In this document: one piece after another, positions 2,274-54,488 of the stretch
How positions within the stretch are numbered: position 1 is the first letter of the stretch
Layout: each line of letters starts with the position of its first letter
NCBI GenBank assembly: GCA_942490825.1
Contig: CALNYG010000005.1
Span: 70,240-134,239, forward strand
Length of the DNA: 64,000 nucleotides
Reading direction: 5' to 3'
Source: Candidatus Moraniibacteriota bacterium
Lineage (GTDB): Bacteria > Patescibacteriota > Minisyncoccia > Moranbacterales > GCA-2747515
The notes under the pieces: generated by a model
The model's database searches: none
Told to the model about the DNA's origin: nothing
Seen by the model: the letters and a program-made list of their open reading frames with translations, nothing else
Made by a program: the position numbers and the translations under genes

Positions 2274-2565
2274 TTTTTTTAGGATCCAGAAAAAGCACCT
2301 TTTTGTTGTAAAAGATTTTTAAAGTTTGTCTATATTTTTATTCAACGAGAATAAGTGTTTCATTTTCAAAAATAAAGAAATTCAATTTAAAATCTTGCTA
2401 AACTATCGAATGTGCTCCAACGGAATTTTATTCATTAATTATACCTTATTATTTTACTTTAAATAAAGGGGTTTGTCAAAAGAAATAATTGTGCTCGCCG
2501 CACGGGCTTTTTAGGTTAGATAATAATCTGTAACCCTATCTTTAATATTATAATATTTGGTATTG

Positions 2566-2942
2566 CTACTCAAATATAGAAATAGCAATTTCTCTGTGCA
2601 TGAATAGCAAGATTGTATATTCAACCATTTCAATACTTTTAGAATAACAATGAGTTTTCCTATGAAATCTTGCTATATAATGTCTTAATTGATTATTCAT
2701 TCCTTCAACTGTAAAAGTCTCTGCTTTTGTTTGAATGTGCTTATCTTTTGGTAAAAATTTTTTATAAACATCCCAATGATCTGAACAGTATTTATCGCAA
2801 TCAATTTTTTGATTTTGTCCCATAATTTTCTTCCAGTTTTTTCACCTCTTGTCCCTATCACGAAATCAATTATTATTTTACTAGATCTATCAACTGCAAG
2901 CCAAATCCAGGCTTTTTTCTTTTTTTTAACACAAAATGCCAC
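2566..2942 (-). pseudogene. IS1 InsB-like DDE transposase ORF, frameshifted
   Basis: The intact paralog at 35679-36056 is a single 125-aa ORF. Here it is split into 81-aa and 85-aa pieces. The homopolymer at 2805-2810 is 6 nt, versus 7 nt at 35811-35817 in the other copy. Confidence 0.75.
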
Positions 2943-2971
2943 ATTTCATCTAATTCCATTTTTTCTATTTT

Positions 2972-3265
2972 CTAATATTTTACTTCTTTTTTACTTTTTA
3001 AAATATTCCTTAATTTTTTAGTTGCTTTTTTTACCCATCTTAATATACTAACGTTACTAACTTTCAGTATTCTTCCTATTGATCTAAATCCTAGTCCCTC
3101 TAAATACATTTCAATTATTTTTTTCTTAATTTCTTTAGGTTTTCCTCTTTTTGTAAATCTAGAAAAGTTATAGCTACATTCTTTACATAGATATCTTTGT
3201 TTTTTATTTACTTTACCATTTTTAACATAATTCTTATTATTGCAATGAGGGCATTTAATTTTCAT
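2972..3265 (-). CDS. IS1 InsA-like zinc-finger/HTH protein
   Basis: MKIKCPHCNNKNYVKNGKVNKKQRYLCKECSYNF is the CxxC...CxxC finger typical of IS1 InsA, followed by an HTH-like region (RSIGRILKVSNVSILRWVKK). Confidence 0.8.
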   Translation of the reverse strand: MKIKCPHCNNKNYVKNGKVNKKQRYLCKECSYNFSRFTKRGKPKEIKKKIIEMYLEGLGFRSIGRILKVSNVSILRWVKKATKKLRNILKSKKEVKY

Positions 3266-3589
3266 TTTTTTGTTTTTAGGTATTTAATTACCTATTCATT
3301 TTACATTATCTATAGTTTGGTAGCAATACCTAATATTTTAACCAGTACTTAAAATTTTTAAGCTGTAATTAGTATATCATCAGGTCATTCATTTCTAAAC
3401 ATTTCTGCACATTACGAAATTATAGATATTTTATTGATGTATCTTTATAGCCTATGTATTATAATCAATAAGAAGAATTTTTCAAGAAATTTGACTTAAG
3501 TCCAATTTTATGCTATTCTTACTATCATCAAGCGAAAGTTTATTTAAATAATCTTTTGTGATTTTTTTAACTTTTTCATTTTAATTTTC

Positions 3590-4732
3590 ATGAATTTTTC
3601 TAAAAAAAACTTATTGATAAAATTAGGATTTATTTTATTTTTAGCGCTGTTTGTTTTTGCAGGAGTAAGTGTTTACATGTTTTCAGATTTGTTTTTAATC
3701 AAACCAACTGCTAGACAAAATCACACAGAAGTATTACCAGATGAACCTTTTGTCATTGATTTTTCTAATTCTATTGATAAAAATTATTATAAGAAAAAAA
3801 TTACTTTAAAACCTAGAACTCCAATGACAGCAACAGTTAGTAAAGATGGTAGTAAAATTACATTGACTCCAAAAGATTCATGGGAGACTAACACTAATTA
3901 CAAAATTAGCATTCCTAAAGGTAGATCCTCTAGTCTAAGACCAATTAAGGAGTCTTACTTTTCTTTTAGAACTGTAAAACATCCGGAAGTTGAAAAAATA
4001 AATCCCGAAAGCGGTGTTGAAGATGTGGTTATTGATGAAGAAAATAAAATTAAAGTGGACTTTAATAAATCAACCGAAGGTTTTTTTATCGATTTTGCTT
4101 TAGAGCCTACAGTGGAAGAAGTTGAGTATTATAATAATGATGAAAAAACTTCTTTTGAAATTATACCTAAAAATGGATTGGAAGCTGGCATTGAATATAA
4201 GTTAGTAATAAGGTCAAAACCGAAAAATTCATCGGATGATAAATATAAAGAACTCTCTTCAACAACATTTACTACTCTTCCACCTCAACCAATAAGTTGG
4301 GCAGAAGAGTTGGATGAGCGTTTAGTTCAAGCAGAGAAATATACTCAACCGCAGATACGAAGTGGTAAGTATATTGATATCAATCTTTCTACACAGATCA
4401 TGACTATTTTTGAAGATGGTGATAAGTTAGGCACTTTTCTGGTTTCTTCTGGTAGAGCTGGAATGGGTACACCAAAAGGTCGTCATCAAATTTATAATAA
4501 ACATTCTCGTGCTTGGTCTAGTAAATATAGTTTATATATGCCTTATTGGATGGCAATTACTTCGGATGGTAAATATGGTATTCATGAACTTCCTGAATGG
4601 CCGAGTGGTTATAAGGAGGGTCAGAATCATTTGGGCATTGCTGTTTCGCATGGTTGTGTGCGTTTGGGAGTTGGGAATTCTCAAAGGGTTTATGACTGGG
4701 CTGAGGTTGGGACTCCGGTTATTGTTTATTAA
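3590..4732 (+). CDS. L,D-transpeptidase (YkuD domain) with N-terminal Ig-like repeats
   Basis: 380 aa. N-terminal signal anchor. The C-terminal domain has GTPKGRHQIYNK...YGIHELP...SHGCVRLG, the catalytic His/Cys motif of YkuD L,D-transpeptidases. Confidence 0.87.
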   Translation: MNFSKKNLLIKLGFILFLALFVFAGVSVYMFSDLFLIKPTARQNHTEVLPDEPFVIDFSNSIDKNYYKKKITLKPRTPMTATVSKDGSKITLTPKDSWETNTNYKISIPKGRSSSLRPIKESYFSFRTVKHPEVEKINPESGVEDVVIDEENKIKVDFNKSTEGFFIDFALEPTVEEVEYYNNDEKTSFEIIPKNGLEAGIEYKLVIRSKPKNSSDDKYKELSSTTFTTLPPQPISWAEELDERLVQAEKYTQPQIRSGKYIDINLSTQIMTIFEDGDKLGTFLVSSGRAGMGTPKGRHQIYNKHSRAWSSKYSLYMPYWMAITSDGKYGIHELPEWPSGYKEGQNHLGIAVSHGCVRLGVGNSQRVYDWAEVGTPVIVY

Positions 4733-5561: not shown

Positions 5562-5623
5562 TTTGCAAAAGCTTAACTTATAAAGTTAAAACACTCGTCA
5601 AAAGACGAGTGTTTTAAAAAAAT

Positions 5624-6658: not shown

Positions 6659-6849
6659 ATCCTTTAAAAATAATACTTAAATAAAATTATAAAACTTTAA
6701 TTATACTAGCATACTTCTATTTTTCTTGCATTTTTAGTTTTTCAAAAGAATTTTTGTGCCAGTCTGCCATGCAACAGGCAGGATCGCCACACGAGCTTTT
6801 TGGGTCGAAAATTCTCAACCCATACAATTTTTATCTTTCAAGTTTGCTT

Positions 6850-7168
6850 GTCATTCTGAACCTGCCTTTGTCGCCTGCCTGTCGGCAGACAGGGCAGACA
6901 GACGTAATAAATTTATTGCAGATAAATTTATGAAGTGAAGCCTACCTGTCGGCAGACAGGAATCCCCCACAGAAAATCATAAAACTTCAAAATTAAAATA
7001 TCAGAAAAACTTCTTTACTACCGGAATTAGTGTGTCGAAGACCACTGATTCCGAAACGTTTCCAAACTAAAAGCTTTTAAAAATTACTGCAAAATCATCA
7101 AAAAAACTTACTGAGATTCTTCACTGCGTTAATTTTTTTTACAAAAAATTAACTTCGCTCAGAATGAC
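6850..7168. repeat. nested MITE-like element (GTCATTCTGAAC ... GCTCAGAATGAC ends)
   Basis: The terminal inverted repeats are related to those of elements at 15304-15463 and 47724-47872. The shared core reads ATGAAGTGAAG..ATCCCCCACAGAAAATCA..AAAATATCAGAAAAACTT. It contains nested CCTGTCGGCAGACAGG hairpins (6874-6893, 6941-6960) and a fragment of the 97-bp palindromic element (7021-7063). Confidence 0.7.
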
Positions 7169-7196
7169 TAGATTGTATTTACATAAAATACTAAAT

Positions 7197-8497: not shown

Positions 8498-8731
8498 ATG
8501 CAAACCACTTATGAAGCTAAGTGCGGTATAAATGATAGAAAAATTGTTTGTACTGTATATACGGAAAAAGCGGCCATTTGGTTAGAAGGGCAAATTAAAA
8601 CTTATGCCACTTGGCCAGAAAAAGTCACGAGACCTTTTCCTTCTAACGTTATATTTGAAGTTAAAGGAAATTGTGATTTTGATGAAACTTTAAGCTGGTT
8701 TCAAAAAAAGTCGAGGTGTCCAATTGATTAA
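8498..8731 (+). CDS. hypothetical 77-aa protein
   Basis: Strong SD AAGGAG upstream of the ATG. Followed by a rho-independent terminator. Four Cys residues. No family recognised. Confidence 0.55.
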   Translation: MQTTYEAKCGINDRKIVCTVYTEKAAIWLEGQIKTYATWPEKVTRPFPSNVIFEVKGNCDFDETLSWFQKKSRCPID

Positions 8732-8775: not shown

Positions 8776-8803
8776 GCAGTCTGACCGCAAAGACTGCTTT
8801 TTT
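8776..8803 (+). terminator. rho-independent terminator
   Basis: Stem GCAGTCT (8776-8782) pairs with AGACTGC (8791-8797), followed by T6. Confidence 0.8.
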
Positions 8804-8884
8804 ATTTGTCAAAAAAACAAAAATAAACTTAAAATTCATAGACTCAAAAGCCCGTGCGGCGAGCACTTTTTAAAAAATAAAAAA

Positions 8885-8978: not shown

Positions 8979-11522
8979 TTAAGCTTGCCACTTATCCCTT
9001 TTCATTTGATCATCTTCAGGACTATCATATTCAGTATCTTTCGTACTAATTAAAACCTTTCTCGGTTTAGAACCATCAGGAGGACCAACCACACCATTAT
9101 CTTCCAAAAGATCAATAATCCTAGCCGCTCGAGCATAACCAACTCGCAATCTCCTTTGAATATAAGAAGTCGACGCCTTTTTTGCTTGCACAACCAAATC
9201 CTTAGCCTCTTCATACAAAGGCTCATCATTTTCCGCACCACCACTTTCATTACCACCAGTCACATTATCAAAATTAACAGCAAAAATTCCCGCAGGATTA
9301 GTAACTTTTACACCATCACCACTTTCAAATTCCAATTCATCTTCGCCAGTATCAAAATTCTGATTTTTAATAAAGTCAACCACTTTTTTAACCTCATGCT
9401 CTTCAATAAAAACACCTTGTAACCTCTGAGCACTCACACTATTCGGAGCAACAAAAAGCATATCACCATGACCAACTAATTTTTCCGCACCCAAGCTATC
9501 AATAATAGTTCGCGAATCAATTCCTGTCGCCACTCGCAAAGCAATTCTCGTCGGTAAGTTAGCCTTAATCAAACCAGTAATAACCTCAACACTCGGTCGT
9601 TGAGTAGAAACAATCAAATGAATTCCAATCGCCCGAGACATCTGTGCCAAACGAACAATCGCACCTTCCACTTCTTTTCCATGAGAAGCCATTAAGTCAG
9701 CCAACTCATCCATAACAATCACAATCATCGGTAAATTTTCCATCTCTTCAGTAATTTTTTTACCAGTTTCAGGGTCAGGATAAACTCGCATTTCACCAGA
9801 CTTCCTTTTTTCATTATATGATCCAATGTCTCGAGAGCCAGTTTCTTGCAACAATTTATAACGTCGTTCCATTTCAGAAATTGCCCATTTTAACGCATTC
9901 AACACTTTATCATTATCAACAATAACATCAGCCAGTAAATGAGGTATTCCATTGTACAAAGAAAGCTCAACTCGTTTTGGATCAACCAGAATCATTTTTA
10001 AATCTTCCGGAGAATTTTTGTAAAGTAGAGAAATTAAAATACTATTAATGGTTACCGATTTTCCTGCTCCAGTCGCTCCCGCCACCAAAAGGTGAGGCAT
10101 CTTTGCTAAATCAGCAATTATAAATTCCCCGTTAACATCTTTTCCTAAAGCTAAAGTAAGGGCACTACTCTGATTTTTAAACTGATTACTTTTAACTAAC
10201 TCCTGCATTCTTACAGCAGCAACTGATTTATTCGGAACTTCGATTCCAACTAAAGATTTTCCAGGGATTGGAGCTTCAATTCTAATCGGATGAGCCGCCA
10301 AAGCCAAAGCTAAATCTGCATTTAAAGAAAGTATTTTAGTTAACTTAACTCCACTCGGTGGTCGGAAACTATATCGGGTTACAGTCGGCCCAGTTACAAT
10401 ATCGTGCAATTCCACATTAATTCCAAAATTTTCAAGAGTTTCTTTAATGACATTTGCATTGGCGTTAACATCGCCACCTTTAGACTTTCCCTGACTTTTT
10501 TCTAAAAGATTCATTGGTGGAAATTTCCAGACAGAACTTTTTCGAGCTTTAGATTTTTGAGGAACCTCTTCAAAAACTTCTTCTTCCTCATATTCGTACT
10601 CATCTTCCTCAACCTCTTCTTTAATAACATTTTCTTTTACAACTTTAGGTTTTTCGTAAAAATCTTCATCACCAACAACTTTTTTTTCAATTTCAATATT
10701 ATTAAATTCTGCATCATCAAAATCTTCATCTCCACCAAATGGGTCTTGAGGAATTTCTTCGCTTTTTTTAATATTCTTTTTCGTCTTCGGAGCAGTTTTT
10801 TCATCTTCAATAATTTCGCCAGTTTCTTCATCATAATATTCATACTCATCTTCCTCACTTTCTTCAACAGGCTCTTCAACAGACTCTTCTTCATATTCGT
10901 ACTCTTCGTCTTCAAGTTCCTCTTCAACTTTTTTACTTTTCTTTTTCTTTCTTTTGAACAATCCTAAAAATTTATTACTTTGTTCTTTCGGCATTTTTTT
11001 CTGCATATCTGAAAAAGAAACGTTGTAAGTAATTATTACTCCGATTAAAATTGTAGCAAATAAAACTAAGATTCCTACTATTTTTCCTACAGCGACTGTA
11101 ATTAAATGAGCGATTAAATATCCGATGTATCCTCCGCCATTTCCTTCTTTGGCTACTTCAACAAAATTTTCAGGTTCAAAAGGTATTAAATGGAACAAAG
11201 CTAAAATGCTGAGAAAGGTTACAATTACGCCAATTATTTTAGTTACGTAAACAACAGTTGAATTTTTTTTAATTAAGACAATTCCGGCAATTGCAAAAAC
11301 CAGTGGTGATAAATATTTACCCCAACCAAAAACGTAGCCAACCAAATGAGTCAGCTTTTTTCCAACGATACCTGCCAGATCGAAAAATCCCAAAGCGAAT
11401 ATTAAAGCTAAAATAAATAAAAAAATCGCAAAGATGCTTCTTTTTGCATCTGTGCTTAAATTTAAGGAAATAAATCCCTCACCATCTCCTTCGTAATCTT
11501 TATTTTTGTTTTTTCTTGCCAT
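8979..11522 (-). CDS. ftsK: DNA translocase FtsK/SpoIIIE
   Basis: 847 aa. N-terminal TM helices, a very acidic low-complexity linker (EDEYEYEEE repeats), a motor domain with Walker A GATGAGKS, and a C-terminal gamma winged helix (TSYIQRRLRVGYARAARIIDLLE). Confidence 0.94.
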   Translation of the reverse strand: MARKNKNKDYEGDGEGFISLNLSTDAKRSIFAIFLFILALIFALGFFDLAGIVGKKLTHLVGYVFGWGKYLSPLVFAIAGIVLIKKNSTVVYVTKIIGVIVTFLSILALFHLIPFEPENFVEVAKEGNGGGYIGYLIAHLITVAVGKIVGILVLFATILIGVIITYNVSFSDMQKKMPKEQSNKFLGLFKRKKKKSKKVEEELEDEEYEYEEESVEEPVEESEEDEYEYYDEETGEIIEDEKTAPKTKKNIKKSEEIPQDPFGGDEDFDDAEFNNIEIEKKVVGDEDFYEKPKVVKENVIKEEVEEDEYEYEEEEVFEEVPQKSKARKSSVWKFPPMNLLEKSQGKSKGGDVNANANVIKETLENFGINVELHDIVTGPTVTRYSFRPPSGVKLTKILSLNADLALALAAHPIRIEAPIPGKSLVGIEVPNKSVAAVRMQELVKSNQFKNQSSALTLALGKDVNGEFIIADLAKMPHLLVAGATGAGKSVTINSILISLLYKNSPEDLKMILVDPKRVELSLYNGIPHLLADVIVDNDKVLNALKWAISEMERRYKLLQETGSRDIGSYNEKRKSGEMRVYPDPETGKKITEEMENLPMIVIVMDELADLMASHGKEVEGAIVRLAQMSRAIGIHLIVSTQRPSVEVITGLIKANLPTRIALRVATGIDSRTIIDSLGAEKLVGHGDMLFVAPNSVSAQRLQGVFIEEHEVKKVVDFIKNQNFDTGEDELEFESGDGVKVTNPAGIFAVNFDNVTGGNESGGAENDEPLYEEAKDLVVQAKKASTSYIQRRLRVGYARAARIIDLLEDNGVVGPPDGSKPRKVLISTKDTEYDSPEDDQMKRDKWQA

Positions 11523-11587: not shown

Positions 11588-11800
11588 GTGCTCGCCGCAC
11601 GGGCTCTGATACACATATGTAGAAATGAATTGCAATTCATCGCTACTACTTAGCTGGTTCAATCTTGTAGATTGAACCAAATGTTTATTTCAATTAAAAG
11701 ATGATTACATGAACTTTTAAGGTAAATAGAAAATTAGAGCTTGGAATAAAAAATGGTTCAATCGAGGACGATTGAACCAACTGAGACTCGCCGCACGGGC
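11588..11800. repeat. mosaic repeat cluster
   Basis: Contains the 17-mer GTGCTCGCCGCACGGGC (11588-11604), a GTAG hairpin GTAGAAATGAATTGCAATTCATCGCTAC (11619-11646), a two-hairpin element (hairpins at 11656-11678 and 11755-11778) and a second 17-mer core (11787-11800). Confidence 0.75.
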
Positions 11801-13042: not shown

Positions 13043-13464
13043 GGGGGTGTCAAGCTTCGACAGTTTGTCATTCGTCAATAAGCACGTCGGGCCATGATCA
13101 AGTATCCCGTAAAACTATTGATCAACTTTTTATAAGTGCAAACTTAGTAAAATCAGCAAAAGCAGTACTAGCGCAAGCTTTTACTCCAGCTTTTGCACCG
13201 TCTTTTGCTTAAATTTTAAGACAAAAGCCATCAACTAGCTAATATCTCATAGGCTAAATTGGTGTCATATCATGAGGATCGTCTAATTTTTTTGTTCCAA
13301 AATTTTAGACTAAACTTAGGAACTAGATATATAATGTTTTGTGAGTTTAGTAATTATATGTTGAAACTAGTTGATTTGCATCAACTTAAAAACTTTACTA
13401 AGCGTGTAGAAATTTGCCGGAGCGTACAAATTTGGACGTGGGTGCAATTCCCACCATCTCCACA
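13043..13464 (+). ncRNA. ssrA: tmRNA (SsrA)
   Basis: The 5' GGGGGTGTCAAGCTTCGACAG pairs with 3' CATCTCC (13455-13461). A T-arm-like GGACGTGGGTGCAATTCCCACC is present. The tag frame resumes at GCA (13138) after AUAAGU and encodes ANLVKSAKAVLAQAFTPAFAPSFA, then TAA (13210-13212). The 3' CCA is not fully encoded (ACAA). Confidence 0.87.
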
Positions 13465-13508: not shown

Positions 13509-13862
13509 ATGGCACATCAATATCAGAAATTAATTTTTTGGCAAAAATCTATGGATTTAGTTGAAATGGTTTATAAAATTACTGCTGATTTTCCAAAAAG
13601 TGAACAATTTGGATTAACATCTCAAATGAGACGATGCTCAGTTTCAATTCCTTCAAATATTGCTGAGGGTAGCAAACGTAATTCAAATAAAGATTTTTAT
13701 CATTTTTTAACTATATCATTTGGCTCTGGTGCTGAACTAGAGACTCAATTGCAAATTGCCAAAAGATTAAATTTTATATGCGAAGAAGAATATGAAAAAA
13801 TCAATTTATTTTTAACAGAAATCATGAAAATGATAAATAAGTTTAGATCCACTTTAAAATAA
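13509..13862 (+). CDS. four-helix-bundle protein (23S rRNA IVS / Avd-like family)
   Basis: 117 aa. ...LIFWQKSMDLVEMVYKITADFPKSEQFGLTSQMRRCSVSIPSNIAEGSKR....F..FL.IS.GS..ELETQL is the typical signature of the S23/IVS four-helix-bundle family. Confidence 0.85.
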   Translation: MAHQYQKLIFWQKSMDLVEMVYKITADFPKSEQFGLTSQMRRCSVSIPSNIAEGSKRNSNKDFYHFLTISFGSGAELETQLQIAKRLNFICEEEYEKINLFLTEIMKMINKFRSTLK

Positions 13863-15154: not shown

Positions 15155-15170
15155 GACTTTCTTTAAAAAA

Positions 15171-15192
15171 TCACCCGAAAGGGTGGTTTTTT
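15171..15192 (+). terminator. rho-independent terminator after rplT
   Basis: Stem TCACCC, loop GAAA, stem GGGTGG, followed by a T run. Confidence 0.85.
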
Positions 15193-15303
15193 GTTTGCAT
15201 AATTTTAATTTAAATTGTGCTCGCCGCACGGGCTTTTCACTATTGAACATTTTCCGAAATTCTAAAAAATTCTCTGTAATTTTTACCGCCCTTTAAGTCT
15301 ACT

Positions 15304-15463
15304 GTCATTCTGAACGTAGTAAATTTATCGCAGATAAATTTATGAAGTGAAGGATCCCCCACAGAAAATCACAAGGTTTTAAAATTAAAATATCAGAAAA
15401 ACTTACTGGGATTCTTCACTGCGTAATTTTGTTTAACAACAAAATTACTTCGTTCAGAATGAC
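15304..15463. repeat. 160-bp MITE (GTCATTCTGAACG / CGTTCAGAATGAC inverted ends)
   Basis: 13-bp perfect terminal inverted repeats at 15304-15316 and 15451-15463. The internal sequence is shared with 6850-7168 and 47724-47872. It contains a GTAG-hairpin (15316-15342). Confidence 0.8.
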
Positions 15464-15494
15464 ATGTTGAATTATTAAAAAATCTCTCAAACAT

Positions 15495-15686
15495 GTCATT
15501 CCGGAAAATAATTTTGTAACGTAGTGGAAAAATTATTTATCCGGAATCTAGGTGGAGTTAATCTTGAAGTTTATAAATTGACTTTAGTTTTTTGTAAAAT
15601 TTAAAGTTTCATTCTCCTGGATCACGGATAAATTATTTTCTATTTCATCGCTTCGCTCTGAAAGAAAATATATTTTCCGAGATGAC
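15495..15686. repeat. MITE of the GTCATTCCGG subfamily
   Basis: Ends are GTCATTCCGGAAAATAATTTT and AAATATATTTTCCGAGATGAC. Homologous to 38813-39020 and 42857-43004, with shared CTAGATTCCGGATAAAT(T/A)ATTTT blocks. Confidence 0.75.
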
Positions 15687-15744
15687 ATACTGGGATATTT
15701 TTTATGTTATAATAAAGAAGGTTAATTTTTGAAAAAAAGATAAT

Positions 15745-15954
15745 ATGGATTTATTTATAAGTATAATGGGATTTGCAGGTTTTGGTATAATTGTTTTAGC
15801 TTCTCCTATACTGATAGTAACTACAATAATTGGTTTTGTCGAAAAAGATTTTAAATATTTTAAAACGACTTTAAAAATTTGGGGAGCAGGTCTATTGATG
15901 TTAGTAATAGCTATGATTGTATTTGTTATTTTACAAACATTAACAAATATTTAA
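15745..15954 (+). CDS. hypothetical small membrane protein
   Basis: 69 aa with two hydrophobic helices. The ribosome-binding site is weak. Confidence 0.35.
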   Translation: MDLFISIMGFAGFGIIVLASPILIVTTIIGFVEKDFKYFKTTLKIWGAGLLMLVIAMIVFVILQTLTNI

Positions 15955-17605: not shown

Positions 17606-17687
17606 ATAGTAGGTTTATTAAATAATTAGATTTGCATATTTTTTACGACACACTATCTTCGGAAAAGATTTGTAAAAATTTACTTAC

Positions 17688-17783
17688 GCCGGAATGGGTG
17701 TGTCAGAGATCACCCATTCCGACCTGTCCGCCAAATGGGCGGGAACGTTACAGAAGCAGTGGTCACGACACACTACTTCTGGC
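17688..17783. repeat. 97-bp palindromic element
   Basis: GCCGGAATGGGTGTGTCAGAGATCACC...GTGGTCACGACACACTACTTCTGGC has long inverted arms. Copies lie at 43135-43231 and 49631-49727 (inverted), with a fragment at 7021-7063. Confidence 0.75.
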
Positions 17784-17871
17784 AAAAAACACATTACTTC
17801 CAGTAAGGATTTGTAAAAACGCTGAATTATCACATTTTTTAATTATTAAAAAATGTAGCCAAACGATCGCT

Positions 17872-18012
17872 GGTTCAGTCTTGTAGACTGAATTTCCTGT
17901 TTATCCCAATTTTTAAAATGTTCAACTAATTTAAACATTTAGTTCAATCTACAAGATTGAACTAACCCAAAAAAAGCCCGTGCGGCGAGCCTGCCCATCA
18001 GCAAGACAGGCG
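17872..18012. repeat. two-hairpin element fused to the 17-mer and a CCTG..CAGG hairpin module
   Basis: Contains hairpins TTCAGTCTTGTAGACTGAA (17872-17893) and GTTCAATCTACAAGATTGAAC (17941-17963), then AAAAAGCCCGTGCGGCGAGC (17976-17990), then CCTGCCCATCAGCAAGACAGG. Confidence 0.7.
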
Positions 18013-18022
18013 TTTTTTTATT

Positions 18023-20076: not shown

Positions 20077-23000
20077 TTATAATTCACTTACATAGTACAA
20101 ATTAAAAACACTATCCCTAACAATTAGATCATCACTATTTGTAGTATTCATAACTTCAAGTTTAAAATTATCTCCAGCATTCGCATGTATTGTCATTGGT
20201 AAAGTAAAAGTCTGGAAGTTACTTACTCCTGATGTTGTAGCTCCAATTCTATATCCAACTGGAACTCCCTGAGTAATGTTATAAAGTCTAAGATAAAAAT
20301 CTTCTCCATTTCCACCTGATATTGTGATGGAAACATTTCCTACGTAATGACCAGCATTAATAAATGTCATTACATCATTTGATAAGCCAAATCCATTTGC
20401 TTCTCCTGAAAATAAATCATTTGTTGAATTAGTTAATTGTTCCCAAGTATCAACTGTACAATTAATAGTTTCCAATTTATTTTGAAATCCTCCATAAATA
20501 TAATAAATATTACTTTGTTTAAGTATTCCTCCAGTAATAATTACATCTCCATTTTCATCAATAACCATCCTTTCAACTCCAGCTGTATCAAACCTAATCT
20601 TATCTTCATCTGCACTTTCTTCAACTTGAATTTTAGTATCACCATCTGTATCACTTAAAGATAAGGCTGTGCTTCCAGAAATATCATCCTGCCAAGTCAA
20701 AGCACCAGATCCATCAGTTTTCAAAACCTGATTAGCTGAACCATCAGCTGTTGGAAGAGTATAATTTTTAAAAGAAATTAATCCATCATTTTTTACACTA
20801 AATAAATTAGCATTAGCACTATCATCAACTTTTAACGCATGAGCTGTGTCATCAGCGGTTGCACCTTTAATGTGAGTTTTAGCAGTGATAGAATTTGTTC
20901 CAATTCCTAAACTATCCGTTACATCATCCCAAAAGAAATTTGTATTATCTTCTGTTACTACTGAGCCTGAAGTAAATAAGATTGAACCCGCAGTAAATGA
21001 ACCTAGAGTATCAGTTAATCCTAAGAAAGTAGAAGTACCACCAGCATTATCATCCACATATTTTTTAGTAGCAGGTTCGTAATCTGCGTCAGGAGTAAAG
21101 GCATCAGTATTATCTAATTCAAGCACATTAGTTAAATCAGCTTTCAAATTCAAAGCAGTCTGAACAGCAGAGCTCACAGGTTTATCAGCGTCACTGGTAT
21201 TATCTACGTTTCCTAATCCTACATCAGATGAATCAACAGAATGAGGGTTTGTTGTTGTATCAGCCACATGACTATCCAATTGAGTATGTGTATTACTTCC
21301 AATATCAGTTAAAGAAGTATGTGATTTTGTAGTAAGATCAGCAATATCTGAAGTTGTTTTATCAACCTGTGCCCAAGTATAATCATTTGTTTGAGCAGTT
21401 ATATCTCCAGTTCTAGTAAATACGCTGGTCACTGCACCACTACTAATATTATCATCAACGTATTTTTTATTTGCCACTTGATAATCAGTTGTCGGAGCTG
21501 AACTTGGAGTTATAGAAAAACTTGAAAATGTCTTAACTCCAGCAACTGTCTGGGGATTTGTTAAATCAACAAAGTTTTGAGTTATTGAACCAGTCCCACC
21601 ATTTGCAATGGGTAATATACCAGTAACATCATCGGTTAAATCAATTTGGTTAGCAGTTATTTCTTGTCCTGATAAAGTTAAATAATCTTTTCCCGCTAAA
21701 GTTACAGCGTCATGTAATTGTGTAATATCAGCTTTCAAATTCAAAGCAGTCTGAACAGCAGTGCTCACAGGTTTATCAGCATCACTGGTATTATCAACAT
21801 TTCCCAATCCAACATCAGATGAGTCTACTGAATGAGGGTTTGTTGTAATATTTGCAATATGAGTATCAATAGTAGCATGATCGTTTGTTCCAATATTTTG
21901 AATATTAGCATGATCAATGCTTCCCTCAGTAAAATGAATACTCGAATCTCCAGTGTGAGAAGTTAAATCACCAGAACTCGCACTATTATCACTTATTGTA
22001 AAATCTGGATAAGTTCCTCCTAAAGTTACATTTGTGCCACCAGTAAAAGCTACTGTTTTATCGTAAAGATTAGTTGAGCCTTCCGTTAAGTCATCAGTTG
22101 TTTTAGAAGAAAAATTACTATCAAAGTTAGTAGAAAAATCTGTAATATTCAATTTCAAATTCAAAGCAGTTTGAACAGCTGAACTCACAGGTTTATCAGC
22201 ATCGCTAGTATTATCCACATTTCCTAATCCTACGTCAGATGAATCTACTGAATGTGGATTAGTTGTTGTATCAGCCACATGACTGTCCAATTGAGTATGT
22301 GTATTACTTCCAATATCAGTTAAAGAAGTGTGTGATTTTGTAGTAAGATCAGCAATATCTGAAGTTGTTTTATCAATTTGTGCCCAAGTGTAATCATTTG
22401 TTTGAGCAGTAACTACTCCAGTTCTTCCAAAAACACTAGTTATTGCACCACCAGAACCCACTAATTCATCCAGTGTCTCTAAAGCTTTTTGAACTGTATC
22501 ATCTAAAACACTAAGATTAGTATCAAAATTTGTAGTATCAAGATCTATTGTAGTTCCAGCTTGATTATGACTAGCTGGAGTAAACTCAGTCGGAACATCA
22601 TTTAAATCATTGTAAGATCCAGAAAAAGTTGAATAACCTGCAGTAGAATGATCTCCCCAACCAAAAGCAGTATCCCAATTACTAGCATTAGCTATTGCAG
22701 TTAAATCAGCTTTCAAATTCAAAGCAGTTTGAACAGCTGAACTCACAGGTTTATCAGCGTCACTGGTATTATCTACGTTTCCTAATCCTACGTCAGATGA
22801 ATCTACTGAATGTGGATTAGTTGTTGTATCAGCAACATGACTGTCCAATTGAGTATGTGTATTACTTCCAATATCAGTTAAAGAAGTGTGTGATTTTGTA
22901 GTAAGATCAGCAATATCTGAAGTTGTTTTATCAATTTGTGCCCAAGTGTAATCATTTGTTTGAGCAGTAACTACTCCAGTTCTTCCAAAAACACTAGTTA

Positions 23001-25898: not shown

Positions 25899-25938
25899 AA
25901 TCGGCGATTTTCTTTGAAAGAATATCGCCGATTTTTTT
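25899..25938. terminator. bidirectional terminator between convergent genes
   Basis: Stem AATCGGCGAT (25899-25908) pairs with ATCGCCGATT (25924-25933), followed by a T run. It abuts the ileS stop. Confidence 0.8.
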
Positions 25939-29870: not shown

Positions 29871-30494
29871 TTAAATTATTTTATTATTATTTTTAAATTC
29901 TAAATTTTCTTCATCAAATGACCATTTTAATGGATTCTCATAAATATATTGTTGTATCTTATTTAAAGATTTTTCATTTCTGATTATATGATCATAATAT
30001 CTGGGTTGCCATTTAAAATTGATTTGTTTTTGTGATTTGTTGATTTCAAATGAACATCTACCTTTAAACCAACGAATCATTGTTGCTAAATTTTCATGCA
30101 ACATTGGATTATGTTGTTTTGTAACACCGCCCATTTTTGTTGTACAAACGCGATTTATCGCGTTTCTTGTATTATCATCAACGGTATCATTGAAACGCGA
30201 TAAATCGGCGTTTCTACAATTTTTAATTCCAATAATTCCATGAATATGATTTGGCATAATTATAAATTCATCTAATTCTACATTATCAAAATGTTGTGGT
30301 ATTTCCAACCAAAATTTTTTTGCCTTTTTTCCAGTTTCATTTAAAGCTGTTTTTTCATTTTCGACTTTACCAAAAAAATATTGTTTGTCTTTTGTGCAGA
30401 CGGTTACGAAATAAAATCCATCATTGGAATAATCCCAATTTTGCAAACGATGTGATCCGATGCGGTATTTATTTTTGAATTTGGGTTGTTGCAT
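29871..30494 (-). CDS. REP-associated tyrosine transposase-like Y1 (HUH) transposase
   Basis: 207 aa. YRIGSHRLQNWDYSNDGFYFVTVCT is followed by the HUH motif MPNHIHGII and the C-terminal Tyr motif WQPRYYDHIIRN, matching the IS200-like/RAYT family. The ORF contains two copies of the REP palindrome AAACGCGAT..ATCGCGTTTC (30142-30169, 30192-30217). Confidence 0.82.
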   Translation of the reverse strand: MQQPKFKNKYRIGSHRLQNWDYSNDGFYFVTVCTKDKQYFFGKVENEKTALNETGKKAKKFWLEIPQHFDNVELDEFIIMPNHIHGIIGIKNCRNADLSRFNDTVDDNTRNAINRVCTTKMGGVTKQHNPMLHENLATMIRWFKGRCSFEINKSQKQINFKWQPRYYDHIIRNEKSLNKIQQYIYENPLKWSFDEENLEFKNNNKII

Positions 30495-30507
30495 AAATTA
30501 TTTATTT

Positions 30508-30532
30508 GAAACGCGATGAATCGCGTTTCTAC
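30508..30532 (-). repeat. REP hairpin flanking the RAYT gene
   Basis: The minus strand reads GTAGAAACGCGATTCATCGCGTTTC, 13 nt upstream of the RAYT ATG. The same palindrome occurs at 38967-38992 and twice inside the RAYT ORF. Confidence 0.75.
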
Positions 30533-30548: not shown

Positions 30549-30745
30549 AAAAACAAAAAATCCCCAAACAAATAAATGTTTAAGGACGATTAAACGCGGT
30601 GCCACCTTAATTCGTTAAAAAATAACGCTCTCAATTTTAGTGATTTACGGACACTTACCGACAAGGTCTACTTAGCTAATGCTTTTCTGCTTGTATCCCC
30701 TGTTTTTCAACAGATCCAATGGTGATAGCCACTGTCAAAGGATTT
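30549..30745 (-). promoter_or_regulatory. T-box riboswitch leader (candidate Ile specifier)
   Basis: The minus strand at 30595-30612 reads AATTAAGGTGGCACCGCG, the T-box sequence. The antiterminator AAGG[UGGCACC]GCG...CGUCCUU is mutually exclusive with a terminator stem (30561-30570 pairing with 30577-30586) followed by U6. Upstream lie AGAAA and AGUAG Stem-I-like motifs, GCGUUA (F-box-like) and a candidate specifier AUC followed by A (30641-30644). Confidence 0.8.
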
Positions 30746-30873
30746 TATAATTGTACTCTATTTATACTATTTTTTTGGGTTAAACGCAAATTTTTGTAAC
30801 TTACAAACAAAATTAATAAACTCAAAATTTTATGAAATATGTTAAATAAACTTAAAAATGCCTAAATTTATAA

Positions 30874-32527: not shown

Positions 32528-32668
32528 GTAGGAGCAATGCCTTGTGCCTGACCTGTGGTGAACGAAAAGCTTTATTAAAAGGGCGACCACCAGTAGAAAC
32601 GAATTGCAATTCATTTCTACAAATATGTATCATAGCCCGTGCGGCGAGCCTACCTATCGGCAGACAGG
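32528..32668. repeat. mosaic repeat cluster
   Basis: Contains GTAGGAGCAATGCCTTGTGCCTGACC (32528-32558), GTAGAAACGAATTGCAATTCATTTCTAC (32593-32620), the 17-mer core GCCCGTGCGGCGAGC (32635-32649) and the hairpin CCTACCTATCGGCAGACAGG (32649-32668). Confidence 0.8.
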
Positions 32669-32728
32669 CACTTTTTAAAGTTGTTTTTATGTTATTATTA
32701 AATTATTAAAAAAATAAAAATAGAATTT

Positions 32729-35355: not shown

Positions 35356-35748
35356 ATGAAAATTAAATGCCCTCATTGCAATAATAAGAATTATGTTAAA
35401 AATGGTAAAGTAAATAAAAAACAAAGATATCTATGTAAAGAATGTAGCTATAACTTTTCTAGATTTACAAAAAGAGGAAAACCTAAAGAAATTAAGAAAA
35501 AAGCAATTGAAATGTATTTAGAGGGACTAGGATTTAGATCAATAGGAAGAATACTGAAAGTTAGTAACGTTAGTATATTAAGATGGGTAAAAAAAGCAAC
35601 TAAAAAATTAAGGAATATATTAAAAAGTAAAAAAGAAGTAAAATATTGGAAAATAGAAAAAATGGAATTAGATGAAATGTGGCATTTTGTGTTAAAAAAA
35701 AGAAAAAAGCCTGGATTTGGCTTGCAGTTGATAGATCTAGTAAAATAA
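35356..35748 (+). CDS. IS1 InsA-like protein (upstream frame)
   Basis: Same Zn-finger/HTH sequence as 2972-3265, with I/A and other single substitutions. The frame continues past the A8 run. Confidence 0.8.
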   Translation: MKIKCPHCNNKNYVKNGKVNKKQRYLCKECSYNFSRFTKRGKPKEIKKKAIEMYLEGLGFRSIGRILKVSNVSILRWVKKATKKLRNILKSKKEVKYWKIEKMELDEMWHFVLKKRKKPGFGLQLIDLVK

Positions 35749-36056
35749 TAATTGATTTCGTGATAGGGACAAGAGGTGAAAAAACTGGAAGAAAATTATG
35801 GGACAAAATCAAAAAAATTGATTGCGATAAATACTGTTCAGATCATTGGGATGTTTATAAAAAATTTTTACCAAAAGATAAGCACATTCAAACAAAAGCA
35901 GAGACTTTTACAGTTGAAGGAATGAATAATCAATTAAGACATTATATAGCAAGATTTCATAGGAAAACTCATTGTTATTCTAAAAGTATTGAAATGGTTG
36001 AAAATACAATCTTGCTATTCATGCACAGAGAAATTGCTATTTCTATATTTGAGTAG
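35679..36056 (+). CDS. IS1 InsB-like DDE transposase frame (expressed as an InsAB' fusion by -1 frameshift)
   Basis: Uninterrupted 125-aa frame ...KAWIWLAVDRSSKIIIDFVIG.R...CSDHW..Y........H.Q.KAET..VEG.NN.LRHY..RF.RKT.CYSKS, which is IS1 InsB-like. Confidence 0.8.
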   Translation: MAFCVKKKKKAWIWLAVDRSSKIIIDFVIGTRGEKTGRKLWDKIKKIDCDKYCSDHWDVYKKFLPKDKHIQTKAETFTVEGMNNQLRHYIARFHRKTHCYSKSIEMVENTILLFMHREIAISIFE

Positions 36057-38739: not shown

Positions 38740-39020
38740 GTGCTCGCCGCACGGGCTTTTGGAGTTCAAAGTTTTTAACCTCCATAAAAATTTATGATAG
38801 CCTTCCAGACATGTCATGCCGGAAGACAGAATTTATTCAAGAGCGTAGCGATTGATTTAAATTCGTCTATCCGGTATCTAGGAAACTATCAGAAAATAAC
38901 TAAATTTTAAAGTTTATAACTAATCTTAAAGCTTCCTAGATTCCGGATAAATTATTTTCTATCTATAAAACGCGATAAATCGACGTTTCTACAAAAGAAA
39001 ATATATTTTCCGGAGTGACA
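38740..39020. repeat. 17-mer plus GTCATGCCGG-type MITE carrying the REP palindrome
   Basis: GTGCTCGCCGCACGGGC lies at 38740-38756. The MITE spans 38813-39020 (ends GTCATGCCGGAAG and CCGGAGTGAC) and has AAAACGCGATAAATCGACGTTTCTAC inserted at 38967-38992. Confidence 0.75.
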
Positions 39021-42744: not shown

Positions 42745-42756
42745 ATAGACGATTAG

Positions 42757-43611
42757 AACGGTAGATTTTTAGATTGGTAGAGACATTACATTGCGATGTC
42801 TTTTTTAATAATTATGACAAGCGACCTTTTTTGTTTTTTGCGAGTCTCTAGAGTATGTCATTCCCGCGGAGGCGGGAATCCAGGATCTCAAAACTTTTAT
42901 TTATGTGAAAAACTAGAATTCATCTATAAACTTTTAATTTTATTATCCTAGATTCCGGATAAATAATTTTTTCACTACGTTACAAAATTATTTTCCGGAA
43001 TGACATGTCTGGGGGATTTGTTAATTTTGTAGGGGCAGTGTCTTGTGCCTGCCCTCCGATGAATAAAAAGTTTTGTGATGAGTGCGACCACGAGTAGAAA
43101 TTAATTGCAATTCATTTTTACAAATATACTTTCTGCCGGAATGGGTGTGTCGTAGACCACCCGTTTCGACCTGTCCGCCAAATCGGCGGGAACGTTTCGG
43201 AAGCAGTGGTCTACGACACACTACTTCCGGCATTTGAGAATTTATGAATTTTGTAGGGACAGTGCCTTGTGCCTATCCTGCTATGAACGAAAAGTTTTGT
43301 GATATTCTACGGGGGATTCTTCACTCCGCTATGCTACGTTCAGAATGACAGAAAAATTTAAAGTTATGTATCATAGCCCGTGCGGCGAGCACTTTATTTC
43401 TTTTTCTTAATGTTTCAAGTTATAATGATTACATTAAATATTTTTCTATGTCATTTCGACTGGAGCGTAGCAGAACAGAGAAATCTCAAAGCTCTAGGAT
43501 AATCCTAAACTTTTGAGATCCTCCAGGGGATATTCTCTACCTACGGCATTCATCTTATCTCTCCACTCCATATTTTAAAACTTCGTTTAAAAATATTCTG
43601 GTCGAGATGAC
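42757..43611. repeat. about 860-bp intergenic mosaic made almost entirely of repeat modules
   Basis: Modules in order: the GTAGATTTTTAGAT module and GTAG hairpin/terminator (42757-42802); a MITE (42857-43004); a GTAG class-D hairpin (43029-43057); GTAGAAATTAATTGCAATTCATTTTTAC (43094-43121); the 97-bp palindromic element (43135-43231); a GTAG class-D hairpin (43253-43281); an orphan MITE end CGTTCAGAATGAC (43337-43349); the 17-mer (43376-43392); and a MITE with GTCATTTCGAC/GTCGAGATGAC ends (43450-43611). Confidence 0.85.
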
Positions 43612-43647
43612 ATATTTAATATTTTTTTAAAAAAATAAAACAAAATT

Positions 43648-49952: not shown

Positions 49953-50099
49953 TTGATTCACTAATTCACTATCATATTGTATAACTTTTTTGAAAAAAAA
50001 TCAAGGTTATTGACTAAGAATACCTTTAAAGTTATAATAAATTTCTTATGTAAGATTGATTTCTTATATAATTTAATTAGTGAAAGTAATAATATTTTT

Positions 50100-50708: not shown

Positions 50709-50730
50709 ATTAATTAATAATAAAATTTTT

Positions 50731-51345: not shown

Positions 51346-51420
51346 TATTTATAAAGATTAAATTTAAAACCACTTTAGAAATAAAGTGGTTTTTTATTTT
51401 TACAAAAAACTTTAATTGCT

Positions 51421-51598
51421 AGTTCAATTGTCCTCGATTGAACTATTTTTTTATCCCAAATTTTAAATTTTATAAAAAACTTAAAATGTAAAATGAATTT
51501 TTGAAGTGATATAAACAAGAAAGTTCAATCTACAAGATTGAACCAACACTAGAAGTTTAAAAATCCCGTGCGACAAGCCTACCTGTTCGGCAGACAGG
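51421..51598. repeat. two-hairpin element plus degenerate 17-mer plus CCTGTTCGGCAGACAGG hairpin
   Basis: Hairpin A AGTTCAATTGTCCTCGATTGAACT lies at 51421-51444 and hairpin B GTTCAATCTACAAGATTGAAC at 51523-51544. The element is roughly 90% identical by eye to 54329-54452. It is followed by TCCCGTGCGACAAGC (51565-51579). Confidence 0.8.
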
Positions 51599-51841
51599 CA
51601 CAAAAAATATAAATAACAAAACTTTCAATTTTTCGTAAATCTTCAATAAAACACTAGCAAACCACTTGCAAAATATCCATTTTAATGATAGATTAAATAA
51701 AGATAACCATCGGCTAGATCGATGGATTTTTTAAGGTTACGCTATTTAATTATTAAAGCATTTGTCAGCGTCAAATGCACAATCCATATTTCAATCAACA
51801 AAGTTAAAAAACTAAGTGGTTGAAATTGTGGAAAAAACTTT

Positions 51842-53137: not shown

Positions 53138-53141
53138 TAAA

Positions 53142-53165
53142 AGCGCGCCTTCGGGCGCGTTTTTG
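53142..53165 (+). terminator. rho-independent terminator after rpsA
   Basis: Stem AGCGCGCC, loop TTCG, stem GGCGCGT, followed by T5. Confidence 0.85.
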
Positions 53166-53191
53166 CTTTTAAGTAACTTTATTTTAATTTT

Positions 53192-53746
53192 ATGATAATT
53201 ACAATAACAGGAGATGCTGGTGCTGGTAAAAGCACTCTTGGTGAAACGTTAGCTGAAAAATTGAACTTTGATAGATATTACATGGGACAAATTCTTCGTG
53301 ACCTAGCGAAGAAAAAAGGGATGACGTTGGTTGAATTATTGAAATATGGAGAAAGTCATTCTGAAATTGATAATGAAATTGATGATTATCAGAAACACTT
53401 AGGAGAAGAAAAAGACAATTTTATTATTGAGGGTAGGACAAGTTGGTTTTTAATTCCTCATTCTATTAAGCTTTACATTAAGGTTGATCCTAAAGTTGGA
53501 GCGGAAAGAATATTTAAAGATTTACAGCACGAAAATAAAAGAAACGAAGGGTCTAATTTAAATACTGTTGATGATGTTTTGAAAAATAGTCAAAAAAGGA
53601 GAAAAAGTGATGATATGAGATATAAGAAGTATTATGATAAAGATTGTTTCAATGAGGATAACTTTGATTTAGTAGTTAATACTACGAAAATGACTCCTGA
53701 AGAAGTACTTGATAAGATTTTAGAGTTTGTTGAAACAAAAAAATAA
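53192..53746 (+). CDS. cmk: (d)CMP kinase (short/archaeal-like type)
   Basis: 184 aa. The P-loop MIITITGDAGAGKST fits the short-type CMP kinase family, and the gene follows rpsA on the same strand. Confidence 0.8.
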   Translation: MIITITGDAGAGKSTLGETLAEKLNFDRYYMGQILRDLAKKKGMTLVELLKYGESHSEIDNEIDDYQKHLGEEKDNFIIEGRTSWFLIPHSIKLYIKVDPKVGAERIFKDLQHENKRNEGSNLNTVDDVLKNSQKRRKSDDMRYKKYYDKDCFNEDNFDLVVNTTKMTPEEVLDKILEFVETKK

Positions 53747-53835
53747 CTTTTAAATTACTATTTTTAAAAAGCTTCAGTTGTAAAAACTGAGGCTTTTTGT
53801 TATTATTAATATACAATTAATTTAAAATAAAAAAT

Positions 53836-54261
53836 ATGGAAGAAAATAGTTTACAAGAAATTAAAAGGCCTTGGCAAGGAACAACTTGGGCGTGGATAAC
53901 AACTATTTATTTAGCAATAGGCATAATAGGAGCAGTATTTCTTTCTTTAAGTTTTTTACTCATAGGATCAAAAAGAATATTTGAAAATGACAATAATCTT
54001 ACCCTGATAATATTAGGGATAATCATTTTTATATTATTAATTGTAATTCCGCTTCTTTTATTATTATACTTTGTCATAAAAGGATTTTTTAGAGGTTGGA
54101 AATGGGCTGTAATCGTAGCTATTATTTTAGAAATTTTAAGTTTAATTGGTAGCTTAATTAATTTAGAAAAGACTAGTTTTTTTGGTTTTTTATTTTCTGG
54201 ATTTATGTTATATCTAGCAATTGCTTGTGTGCAACATCCATTTTACAATAAGAAAAAATAA
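53836..54261 (+). CDS. hypothetical membrane protein
   Basis: 141 aa with four hydrophobic helices. A terminator hairpin (CTGTGATTTTCACAG plus T run) follows. Confidence 0.45.
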   Translation: MEENSLQEIKRPWQGTTWAWITTIYLAIGIIGAVFLSLSFLLIGSKRIFENDNNLTLIILGIIIFILLIVIPLLLLLYFVIKGFFRGWKWAVIVAIILEILSLIGSLINLEKTSFFGFLFSGFMLYLAIACVQHPFYNKKK

Positions 54262-54328
54262 CTCATTCAAAAACAAGACTTCATAAAACTCTGTGATTTT
54301 CACAGGGTTTTATTTTTAAAAAATTGCT

Positions 54329-54488
54329 AGTTCAATCGTCCTCGATTGAACTATTTTTTTATCCCAAATTTTAAATTTTATAAAAACCTTGAAATGTAAA
54401 ATGAATTTTTGAATTGATATAAACAGGAAGGTTCAATCTACAAGATTGAACCAAGGCTATAAGTTTAAAAAGCCCGTGCGGCGAGCAC
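54329..54488. repeat. two-hairpin element plus 17-mer
   Basis: Hairpin A AGTTCAATCGTCCTCGATTGAACT lies at 54329-54352, hairpin B GGTTCAATCTACAAGATTGAACC at 54430-54452, and GCCCGTGCGGCGAGCAC at 54472-54488. Confidence 0.8.

Follow-up and report, generated by a model that had tools for sequence, protein, structure and literature searches.

For the Candidate Phyla Radiation, with its small genomes, hardly any interspersed repeats are on record; a literature search on repeats and MITEs (miniature transposable elements with inverted repeats) in this group gave none that mentioned it among the matches listed. The element considered here is a GC-rich 15-nt word, GCCCGTGCGGCGAGC (the 15-mer), repeated between the genes of a 64-kb stretch of DNA (hereafter the window: 64,000 nt of contig CALNYG010000005.1, assembly GCA_942490825.1) from a Candidatus Moraniibacteriota bacterium of the Patescibacteria. 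Among the closest described systems are the DNA uptake sequences (DUS) of Neisseriaceae, the uptake signal sequences (USS) of Pasteurellaceae, and the repetitive extragenic palindromes (REPs) with their REP-associated tyrosine transposases (RAYTs). Known DUS and USS occur at about one copy per kb, a large share of them within coding sequences, and Patescibacteria are thought to rely on DNA uptake. The distribution rules of these words have been described, and about half of the copies stand beside terminators (10.1101/2025.10.24.684340). By definition, a REP is a 20-40 bp imperfect palindrome, able to fold into a stable stem-loop, with an unpaired GTAG or CGTC tag at one end (PMC3733652). REP/RAYT systems persist vertically over long periods, but the elements concerned are longer palindromic doublets, accompanied by a visible cloud of mutants, rather than an exact 20-nt singlet (10.1101/2021.07.10.451892).

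The 15-mer is strongly over-represented in the window and restricted to its intergenic DNA. A search allowing up to two mismatches yields nine exact matches and one copy with a single mismatch (11786-11800), against a mean of 0.02 and a maximum of 1 in dinucleotide shuffles of the window. Two further, decayed copies emerge when three mismatches are allowed (51564-51578, with 3 mismatches, listed as degenerate in the initial annotation, and a newly recognised twelfth at 6782-6796 on the minus strand); at four or five mismatches only scattered background is added. In a 12-mer census it is the top word of the window that is not of low complexity. G+C content of the window is 26-37% in 2-kb steps, and the density of the word is about one copy per 5-6 kb, compared with one per 6-9 kb in its relatives. 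All 12 window copies are intergenic, while genes make up 81.6% of the window and intergenic DNA 18% (p ~1.5e-9). The initial annotation, which had listed a repeated GC-rich word that was always intergenic, was right in the coordinates and strand of every copy that it listed and in their intergenic placement; the coding frequency, on which it had made a possible refutation depend, is 0 of 22 copies in the window and two related lineages.

An alignment of 21 copies, from the window and its relatives, defines the full unit as ANA-GCCCGTGCGGCGAGC-AC. The unit is sharply bounded, and information collapses beyond these 20 nt. Flank positions -3 and -1 are A in every aligned copy, and positions +1/+2 read AC in 16 of the 21. 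The 5' flank is of two types, an A run or GTATCAKA. Framing by A/T runs had been proposed, and it holds only in part: the 5' A run is present in about two-thirds of copies, and the 3' T run is found in fewer and inconsistently.

The window encodes RNase Y, FtsK, RecA, IleS, PcrA, FtsH, tmRNA and further housekeeping functions. Of its protein matches with a named source, the best come from metagenome-assembled genomes labelled Candidatus Moranbacteria/Moraniibacteriota. In the comparison with relatives, the window itself is called lineage W. Lineage A (GCA_030630955.1 and GCA_023133275.1; loci L121, L127 and L130, 42.6 kb) contains 5 copies, and its proteins share 89% (RNase Y), 80% (FtsK) and 81% (PcrA) identity with those of the window. 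Lineage B (SRR31654895; loci L125, L133 and L135, 29.6 kb) also contains 5 copies, with 89% identity in RNase Y and 76% in PcrA. More distant relatives of lower identity (loci L126, L134, L136 and L152, 34.7 kb) contain none. This amounts to 22 copies in 136 kb of W, A and B versus 0 in 34.7 kb of the outgroup (Poisson P ~0.004), and the 15-mer is the sole repeat word in multiple copies common to the three lineages. Wider scans returned chance matches: a collection-wide contig scan with the bare 15-mer gave matches in GC-rich genomes only, a JGI metagenome scan with AAAGCCCGTGCGGCGAGCAC gave GC-rich matches and no AT-rich one, and an IMG/VR scan with the 17-mer gave GC-rich matches only, the viral ones being coding sequence that reads CPCGEH. 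Since matches are limited to W, A and B and both the outgroup and the collections are negative, the word is specific to a narrow clade; it is confined to one Moranbacteria clade.

Within this clade the word is retained at no fewer than six orthologous sites. Upstream of ftsK it occurs in all three lineages: an exact copy upstream of the ftsK promoter in W (11590..11604, minus strand), a copy with 1 mismatch in A (L127:3116) and an exact one in B (L135:14). Downstream of ftsK, an exact copy in W (8850..8864, plus strand) lies between two terminator hairpins, reversed relative to ftsK, and its ortholog in B is also exact (L135:2643-2657). Upstream of the promoter of a xerC-like recombinase gene, an exact copy in W (43376..43390, plus strand) corresponds to L133:9255 in B. 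The exact copy 56 nt upstream of tilS in W (54472..54486, plus strand), which is followed by the box TGCTATAAT, has an exact ortholog in B (L133:6-20). The remaining two sites are upstream of recA, where lineage A has the word (L127:7788) and W a decayed form, GCTCGTGTGGCGATC (6782..6796, minus strand), followed by a 24-nt mini-hairpin module (module B, 6758-6781, described below), and upstream of infB, where A has the word and B has TTCGTGCGGCGAGCAC. For the site upstream of ykuD, W versus A gave no usable alignment. Across eight pairwise comparisons at orthologous sites, 9 of 120 positions of the 15-mer differ, and 7 of these 9 differences fall in two copies. Upstream flanks are unalignable beyond a few bases, and only adjacent promoters and terminators are similarly conserved. 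Neutral sequence would be unrecognisable at such divergence, yet the word is near-invariant while its flanks diverge; it is therefore not neutral debris. The earlier claims that the core is better conserved than its surroundings and is not neutral repeat debris are borne out, and the check for conservation in related genomes that had been called for gives a positive answer in both A and B.

Conservation acts on the primary sequence of the word, not on a hairpin. Two hairpins are possible, GCUCG-CCGCA-CGGGC and, on the other strand, GUGC-N5-GCAC. They fold at -4.8 to -6.2 kcal/mol, no better than shuffles (z -0.3 to -0.7). The 21-copy alignment contains zero compensatory changes in either helix, the loop is as invariant as the stem, and single-base variants in A and B disrupt the 5-bp helix. 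Rfam reports no RNA family at any copy. The weak fold, the lack of covariation and the invariant loop together indicate that termination is not what selection maintains.

One gain of the word can be traced upstream of rny, the RNase Y gene. A promoter (TTGACA-17-TAAAAT) and a long leader are conserved there in W, A, B and the more distant locus L126. W alone carries TAAAAAGCCCGTGCGGCGAGCAC (2491-2513), 11-13 nt upstream of the rny -35 box, as a clean indel relative to the other three; the 15-mer (2493..2507, minus strand) lies inside it. The insertion has no target duplication. At 23 nt, against 50-500 bp for MITEs, the inserted unit also lacks terminal inverted repeats. The alignment indicates at least one gain of the 15-mer, by the clean insertion of 23 nt next to a promoter that is older and conserved.

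The word is also a target of other insertions. Module B is a GC-rich mini-hairpin with the core CCTGTC-GGCA-GACAGG, and in four copies of the 15-mer it stands at exactly GAGC^AC. Three of these (17991-18011, 32650-32669 and 51579-51599) are the fusions to a CCT(A/G)CC...GGCAGACAGG module that had already been recognised, and 6758-6781 on the minus strand is a fourth. The 15-mers concerned are an exact copy past the 3' end of a 626-aa gene (17976..17990, plus strand), an exact copy on the Spondin_N gene upstream side of a divergent intergenic region (32635..32649, plus strand), a decayed copy, TCCCGTGCGACAAGC (51564..51578, plus strand), and the decayed copy upstream of recA. Free copies of module B are found near 6877-6961. 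Upstream of recA the word of lineage A is uninterrupted, and W has the word plus module B; upstream of xerC, A has a module-B-like piece (L130 ~10040-10065) where W and B have the 15-mer. Two of the four module-B-bearing copies are decayed, compared with 16 of 17 others at one mismatch or fewer, which hints, in small numbers, that the GAGCAC junction matters. The 15-mer serves as a fixed insertion point for module B.

Other hairpins surround the word. W-specific hairpin modules (hp1, hp2, families D7, D9/D16 and others) are inserted around older 15-mer copies, and the neighbouring GAATTGCAATTC and TTCAATC...GATTGAA hairpins reported initially are present as described. One segment of 165 nt, made up of hairpin 1, a spacer, hairpin 2 and the 15-mer, is found twice, at 51414-51578 and 54322-54486, with 93% identity; the duplicates sit upstream of the S1 gene and tilS, respectively, and the S1 copy contains the decayed word and module B. 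The intergenic regions of the window are in general long for Patescibacteria (median 211 nt, up to 903 nt; e.g. 6659-7196, 15155-15878, 17606-18022 and 42745-43647). They are packed with lineage-specific repeat families (D7, D9/D16, D10, D11/D17, D18 and D20), including GGTTCAATCTACAAGATTGAACC hairpins and GTCATTCTGAACG-type units.

The window also encodes a candidate of the mobilising enzyme class, a RAYT-like Y1 (HUH) transposase (29871..30494, minus strand). Its open reading frame (ORF) matches Pfam Y1_Tnp (E 2e-7) and the NCBIfam model REP_Tyr_transpos (E 5e-19; at 68.5 bits, short of its curated cutoff of 80). Its sole PDB match is E. coli TnpA-REP (4ER8, E 5e-4), in an alignment that spans the HUH motif and the WQPRYYDHIIRN tyrosine motif. 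A tblastn search with the protein found no second RAYT-like copy in the window or in the relatives' loci. On these matches, the genome is predicted to have the enzymology for duplication-free single-strand transposition of short repeats.

The REP that flanks the RAYT-like gene is a GTAG-tagged one, GTAGAAACGCGATTCATCGCGTTTC (30505-30532), distinct from the 15-mer. A related element, REP-C (GTAGAAACGAATTGCAATTCATTTCTAC), is a GTAG-tagged perfect hairpin containing GAATTG/CAATTC and is common to W (11619-11646, 32593-32620 and 43094-43121) and lineage B (L133:9286-9313). At W 11590, at W 32635 and at the xerC-upstream site of B, three sites that are not orthologous, it stands 14-16 nt upstream of the 15-mer. 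At 32635, both REP-C and GTATCATA stand ahead of the word. An inverted pair of GTAG-tagged REPs (a REPIN-like doublet, 30142-30201) is also found in frame within the RAYT-like ORF itself, between the HUH and tyrosine motifs; it adds about 27 residues, so that family models match the ORF in two stretches. Upstream of the RAYT-like gene, a 137-aa ORF and ileS (25937-29422, minus strand) there is a T-box leader (30579-30775, minus strand; Rfam RF00230, E 1.6e-9, 49.8 bits against a gathering score of 93). An insertion of the RAYT-like gene and its REP appears to have separated this leader from the tRNA-synthetase gene that it would normally control.

The idea of a transposition end, raised in the initial annotation, is only partly sustained. 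The clean 23-nt insertion and the RAYT-like gene make a link to transposition plausible, but no inverted pair of words flanks a transposase gene. The 15-mer was considered as a transposon terminal repeat, an idea that was rejected: ftsK lies within the inverted pair 8850/11590 and tgt within 15219/17976, and neither pair encloses a transposase. IS1-family remnants (InsA-like and InsB-like fragments) are found at 2566-3265 and 35356-36056, and neither ends at a 15-mer.

The explanation preferred here, held tentatively and with less than even confidence, is that the word is a REP-like, protein-recognised mini-cassette of mobile origin, kept by selection at operon boundaries. The cassette would measure about 20-23 bp and consist of (T)A(4-5) or GTATCAKA, then GCCCGTGCGGCGAGC, then AC. 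A dedicated DNA-binding or DNA-processing protein might read the word as primary sequence. For its copying, we infer a duplication-free single-strand "peel and paste" reaction by HUH/Y1 enzymes of the IS200/RAYT kind, in which the mini-hairpin GCTCG-CCGCA-CGGGC, which differs between the strands (G.T in one, C.A in the other), would act as the handle. Selection would then keep the copies, the protein-bound word being useful, or at least tolerated, at operon boundaries; any terminator activity would be secondary. Such a reading retains the protein-recognition part of the earlier proposal, in line with the constraint on primary sequence and the rejection of debris, but the word is not the end of any element seen.

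Several observations weigh against this explanation. Like REPs, the word is extragenic and present in many copies (12 of 12 intergenic), but it has only 4-5 bp stems and no 20-40 bp palindrome, and the GTAG/CGTC tag is absent from ANA-GCCCGTGCGGCGAGC-AC. The RAYT-like gene is bordered by GTAGAAACGCGAT...ATCGCGTTTC, with the nearest 15-mer in the window 2.1 kb off, and nothing found ties this enzyme directly to the word. The 21-copy alignment reveals no conserved target tetranucleotide beside the copies. Only one clean insertion is documented, and the rny indel could be a deletion if the lineage branching order differs from the expectation drawn from protein identity. Selfish mobility alone also fails to explain why single copies stay letter-perfect where sites are orthologous; a constraint at host level or biased conversion must come in addition. 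Four rival readings are weighed below, and part of the total confidence is reserved for mechanisms outside these five.

The position of the word is relevant to all of them. When orthologous sites are counted once, 15 independent sites remain, and at 12 of these the 15-mer points to where the next co-oriented gene starts (p = 0.035, binomial). Its usual place is between the upstream gene's terminator and the promoter. Three reversed sites stand behind gene 3' ends, among them the ftsK-downstream site between two terminators, kept in W and B; one site lies in a divergent intergenic region. The exact copy behind the rplT terminator (15219..15233, minus strand) is reversed relative to rplT. The one-mismatch copy (11786..11800, minus strand; final base T) is in direct orientation, 182 nt from the 11590 copy, with hairpin modules between them. 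At lineage-conserved promoters, namely those of ftsK (A, B), xerC (W, B), ykuD (A), rny (W) and a dksA-like gene (W), the distance from the end of the 15-mer to the -35 box is 4-13 nt. The last of these has an exact copy (38742..38756, minus strand) 76 nt upstream of the dksA-like/lspA operon, with TAGACA-17-TAAAAT downstream of it. A -10 box, often TGn-extended, is found 28-39 nt downstream in 7 of 11 forward copies, within an overall range of 13-56 nt. Such a pattern agrees with an element that is useful, or tolerated, where operons meet; it is harder to reconcile with a classical operator and does not fit a terminator.

Orientation relative to replication and to transcription is inseparable in 64 kb because gene orientation and GC skew covary. 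The sign of the GC skew follows the main gene strand: negative over 1-40 kb, positive over 40-58 kb and negative after that, with switches at about 39-41 and 58 kb. In lineage A, dnaA lies about 10 kb from ftsK, and the region may be near the origin in relatives; synteny in W differs.

Among the rivals, a promoter operator survives best, though it is unlikely. At the upstream edge of promoters (roughly -40 to -60), the word would be bound by a global DNA-binding protein specific to the clade; this protein would activate, repress or insulate the operon downstream, and copies of the word would come from small duplications. The orientation bias, the short distance to the -35 box and the recurrent -10 spacing all speak for such a site, as does the co-conservation of word and promoter at ftsK, xerC and recA. 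The sub-word GTGC-N5-GCAC is moreover a small palindrome that tends to survive in variant copies. However, conserved copies exist without a promoter (ftsK-downstream in W and B), as do copies after rplT and the 626-aa gene, and the spacing to the -10 box is variable. All 15-17 positions are near-invariant, the non-palindromic GCC and the spacer among them, in contrast to known operators, whose sites are degenerate, mostly dyad-symmetric and fixed in position relative to the promoter within a functionally coherent regulon. The downstream genes (rny, ftsK, recA, xerC, tilS, infB, ykuD, the lspA operon and the Spondin_N gene) share no theme, and about one-quarter of the larger intergenic regions carry the word.

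More doubtful is an uptake or self-recognition word of the DUS/USS kind, for which a competence receptor would prefer DNA that bears the 15-mer and molecular drive would keep the copies exact. The exact word is extremely over-represented and clade-specific, like a DUS "dialect", and its orthologous conservation would need no function at each locus. Intergenic regions of any type are occupied, often by terminators, as for about half of known DUS/USS (10.1101/2025.10.24.684340), and several neighbours are genome-maintenance genes (recA, ftsK, xerC and the pcrA region). The density of one copy per 6-9 kb is nevertheless far from that of about one per kb in known systems, and none of the 22 copies lies in coding DNA. 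Intergenic DUS and USS are often paired in inverted orientation and then act as terminators, but here no intergenic region holds such a pair. The word, at 15-20 nt, is longer than known signals of 9-12 nt, has a modest orientation bias and includes a 23-nt insertion unlike the presumed origin of DUS. A literature search combining Patescibacteria and uptake sequences found no linking paper.

A short, possibly bidirectional, intrinsic terminator (GUGCUCGCCGCACGGGC followed by a U run) is improbable. Four copies resemble terminators in a consensus scan, a 5-bp stem followed by 4-7 T is present in the reverse orientation of about two-thirds of copies, and three copies stand behind gene 3' ends in that orientation. 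The stem is weak, though, at the shuffle-level stability given above, without compensatory changes, with an invariant loop and with variants that break it; the U tract is missing in about one-third of copies, including the ftsK-downstream copy of lineage B and all copies of the GTATCATA (GTATCAKA) type. At 12 of 15 sites, the word in the orientation that has the U run lies antisense to the genes around it, and genuine longer hairpins precede the word at ftsK-down, rplT-down, tilS-up, S1-up and, in A, ftsK-up. The initial annotation had argued that positions and orientation do not fit a pure terminator, and this holds; the GCUCG/CGGGC hairpin followed by a U run that it described can form, but its stability is that of shuffled sequence and the T run is inconsistent.

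The last rival, neutral debris of a recently expanded selfish repeat without constraint, has very little to recommend it: the intergenic DNA is indeed full of other lineage-specific repeat families, some copies are lineage-specific and two are decayed, but copies shared by descent are exact at 76-89% protein identity amid unalignable flanks, and no other repeat word is in multiple copies in all three lineages. Five more candidates were considered from sequence alone and rejected: a sigma-54 promoter, an alternative -35 box, parS/matS-type palindromes, a LexA or CIRCE box, and a leader peptide. They fell on misfits of spacing, symmetry, copy number or reading frame.

Other features of the window deserve mention. 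A 1483-aa ORF (20077-24528, minus strand) has no NCBIfam match and contains four to five internal repeats 558 nt apart, some of them 98% identical; its product is probably a repetitive surface protein. Following tRNA-Val, the segment 57688-62754 encodes a GmrSD/HNH-type endonuclease, a Bro-N protein, a DUF2130 protein and an EcoRI-type adenine methylase, and contains no 15-mer copy; it is likely a defence or foreign-DNA island. Convergent with ftsK is a putative 77-aa ORF (8498-8731, plus strand) that has a good ribosome-binding site and a terminator hairpin of its own (8776-8797); the 106-aa ORF that stands in this place in lineage A is no homologue of it. The tmRNA gene (13043-13463, plus strand) specifies an unusual tag peptide, ANLVKSAKAVLAQAFTPAFAPSFA, and is followed by a 23S-rRNA-IVP/bAvd-like gene (13509-13862).

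The significance of the word lies in its double character. It acts as a mobile cassette, with a clean insertion and use as an insertion target, and as a constrained site, exact at 76-89% protein identity. In a single Moranbacteria clade, a non-palindromic word of 20 bp occurs together with mini-hairpins in a mosaic and with a RAYT-like gene and GTAG-tagged REPs; this offers a simple, countable system for how very short repeats copy and why hosts retain them. If the word is an uptake or boundary signal, it would represent a new sequence-specific DNA-recognition system in uncultured episymbionts. The bolder version, doubtful as stated above, is that a clade of Patescibacteria, organisms thought to feed on scavenged DNA, has in the word a self-recognition or uptake signal, kept exact by biased uptake and recombination; if true, it would be the first such signal outside Proteobacteria. 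Less exotically, operon boundaries might be marked by an architectural or a domesticated transposase-derived protein whose binding word is the 15-mer.

Among known systems, Rho-independent terminators resemble the word in that many copies have an A run on one side of a GC-rich core and a T run on the other, but the 15-mer conserves sequence rather than pairing, its stem is too weak and it is mostly in the wrong orientation. Yeast mitochondrial GC clusters are likewise small GC-rich units in AT-rich intergenic spacers, with clean presence or absence between relatives; they differ as 30-60 bp palindromes of an organelle genome that make short target duplications, and the likeness implies no common descent. 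Neisseria dRS3 and the Neisseria intergenic mosaic elements (NIME) are short repeats with small inverted arms in intergenic mosaics and serve as a fixed insertion target; dRS3 is symmetric (6-N8-6) and used by phage and IS110-type recombinases, whereas the 15-mer is asymmetric and no recombinase of phage or IS110 type was linked to it. With DUS and USS it shares an exact, over-represented clade word kept at orthologous positions, frequent by terminators and near genome-maintenance genes, but it is six to nine times sparser, longer, absent from coding DNA, without inverted pairs and inserted like a cassette. From the REP and bacterial interspersed mosaic elements (BIME) and the REPIN-RAYT systems of Enterobacteria and Pseudomonas it differs in a potential stem of 4-5 bp instead of a 20-40 bp palindrome and in the lack of a GTAG/CGTC tag. 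All its copies are singlets, the sole close pair (11786 and 11590) being direct, where the repeats of REPIN-RAYT systems are mostly inverted doublets (REPINs). In those systems the RAYT gene is single-copy and has the repeat itself on its flanks; the RAYT-like gene here is flanked by another, GTAG-tagged REP. The 15-mer copies are also far more uniform. It agrees with these systems in being short, GC-rich, strictly extragenic, at operon boundaries, in many copies and in module mosaics, as well as in long vertical persistence, a RAYT-type Y1 transposase in the genome and gain without target duplication. The 15-mer is new within this theme of short interspersed repeats, in a phylum where such elements are essentially undescribed.

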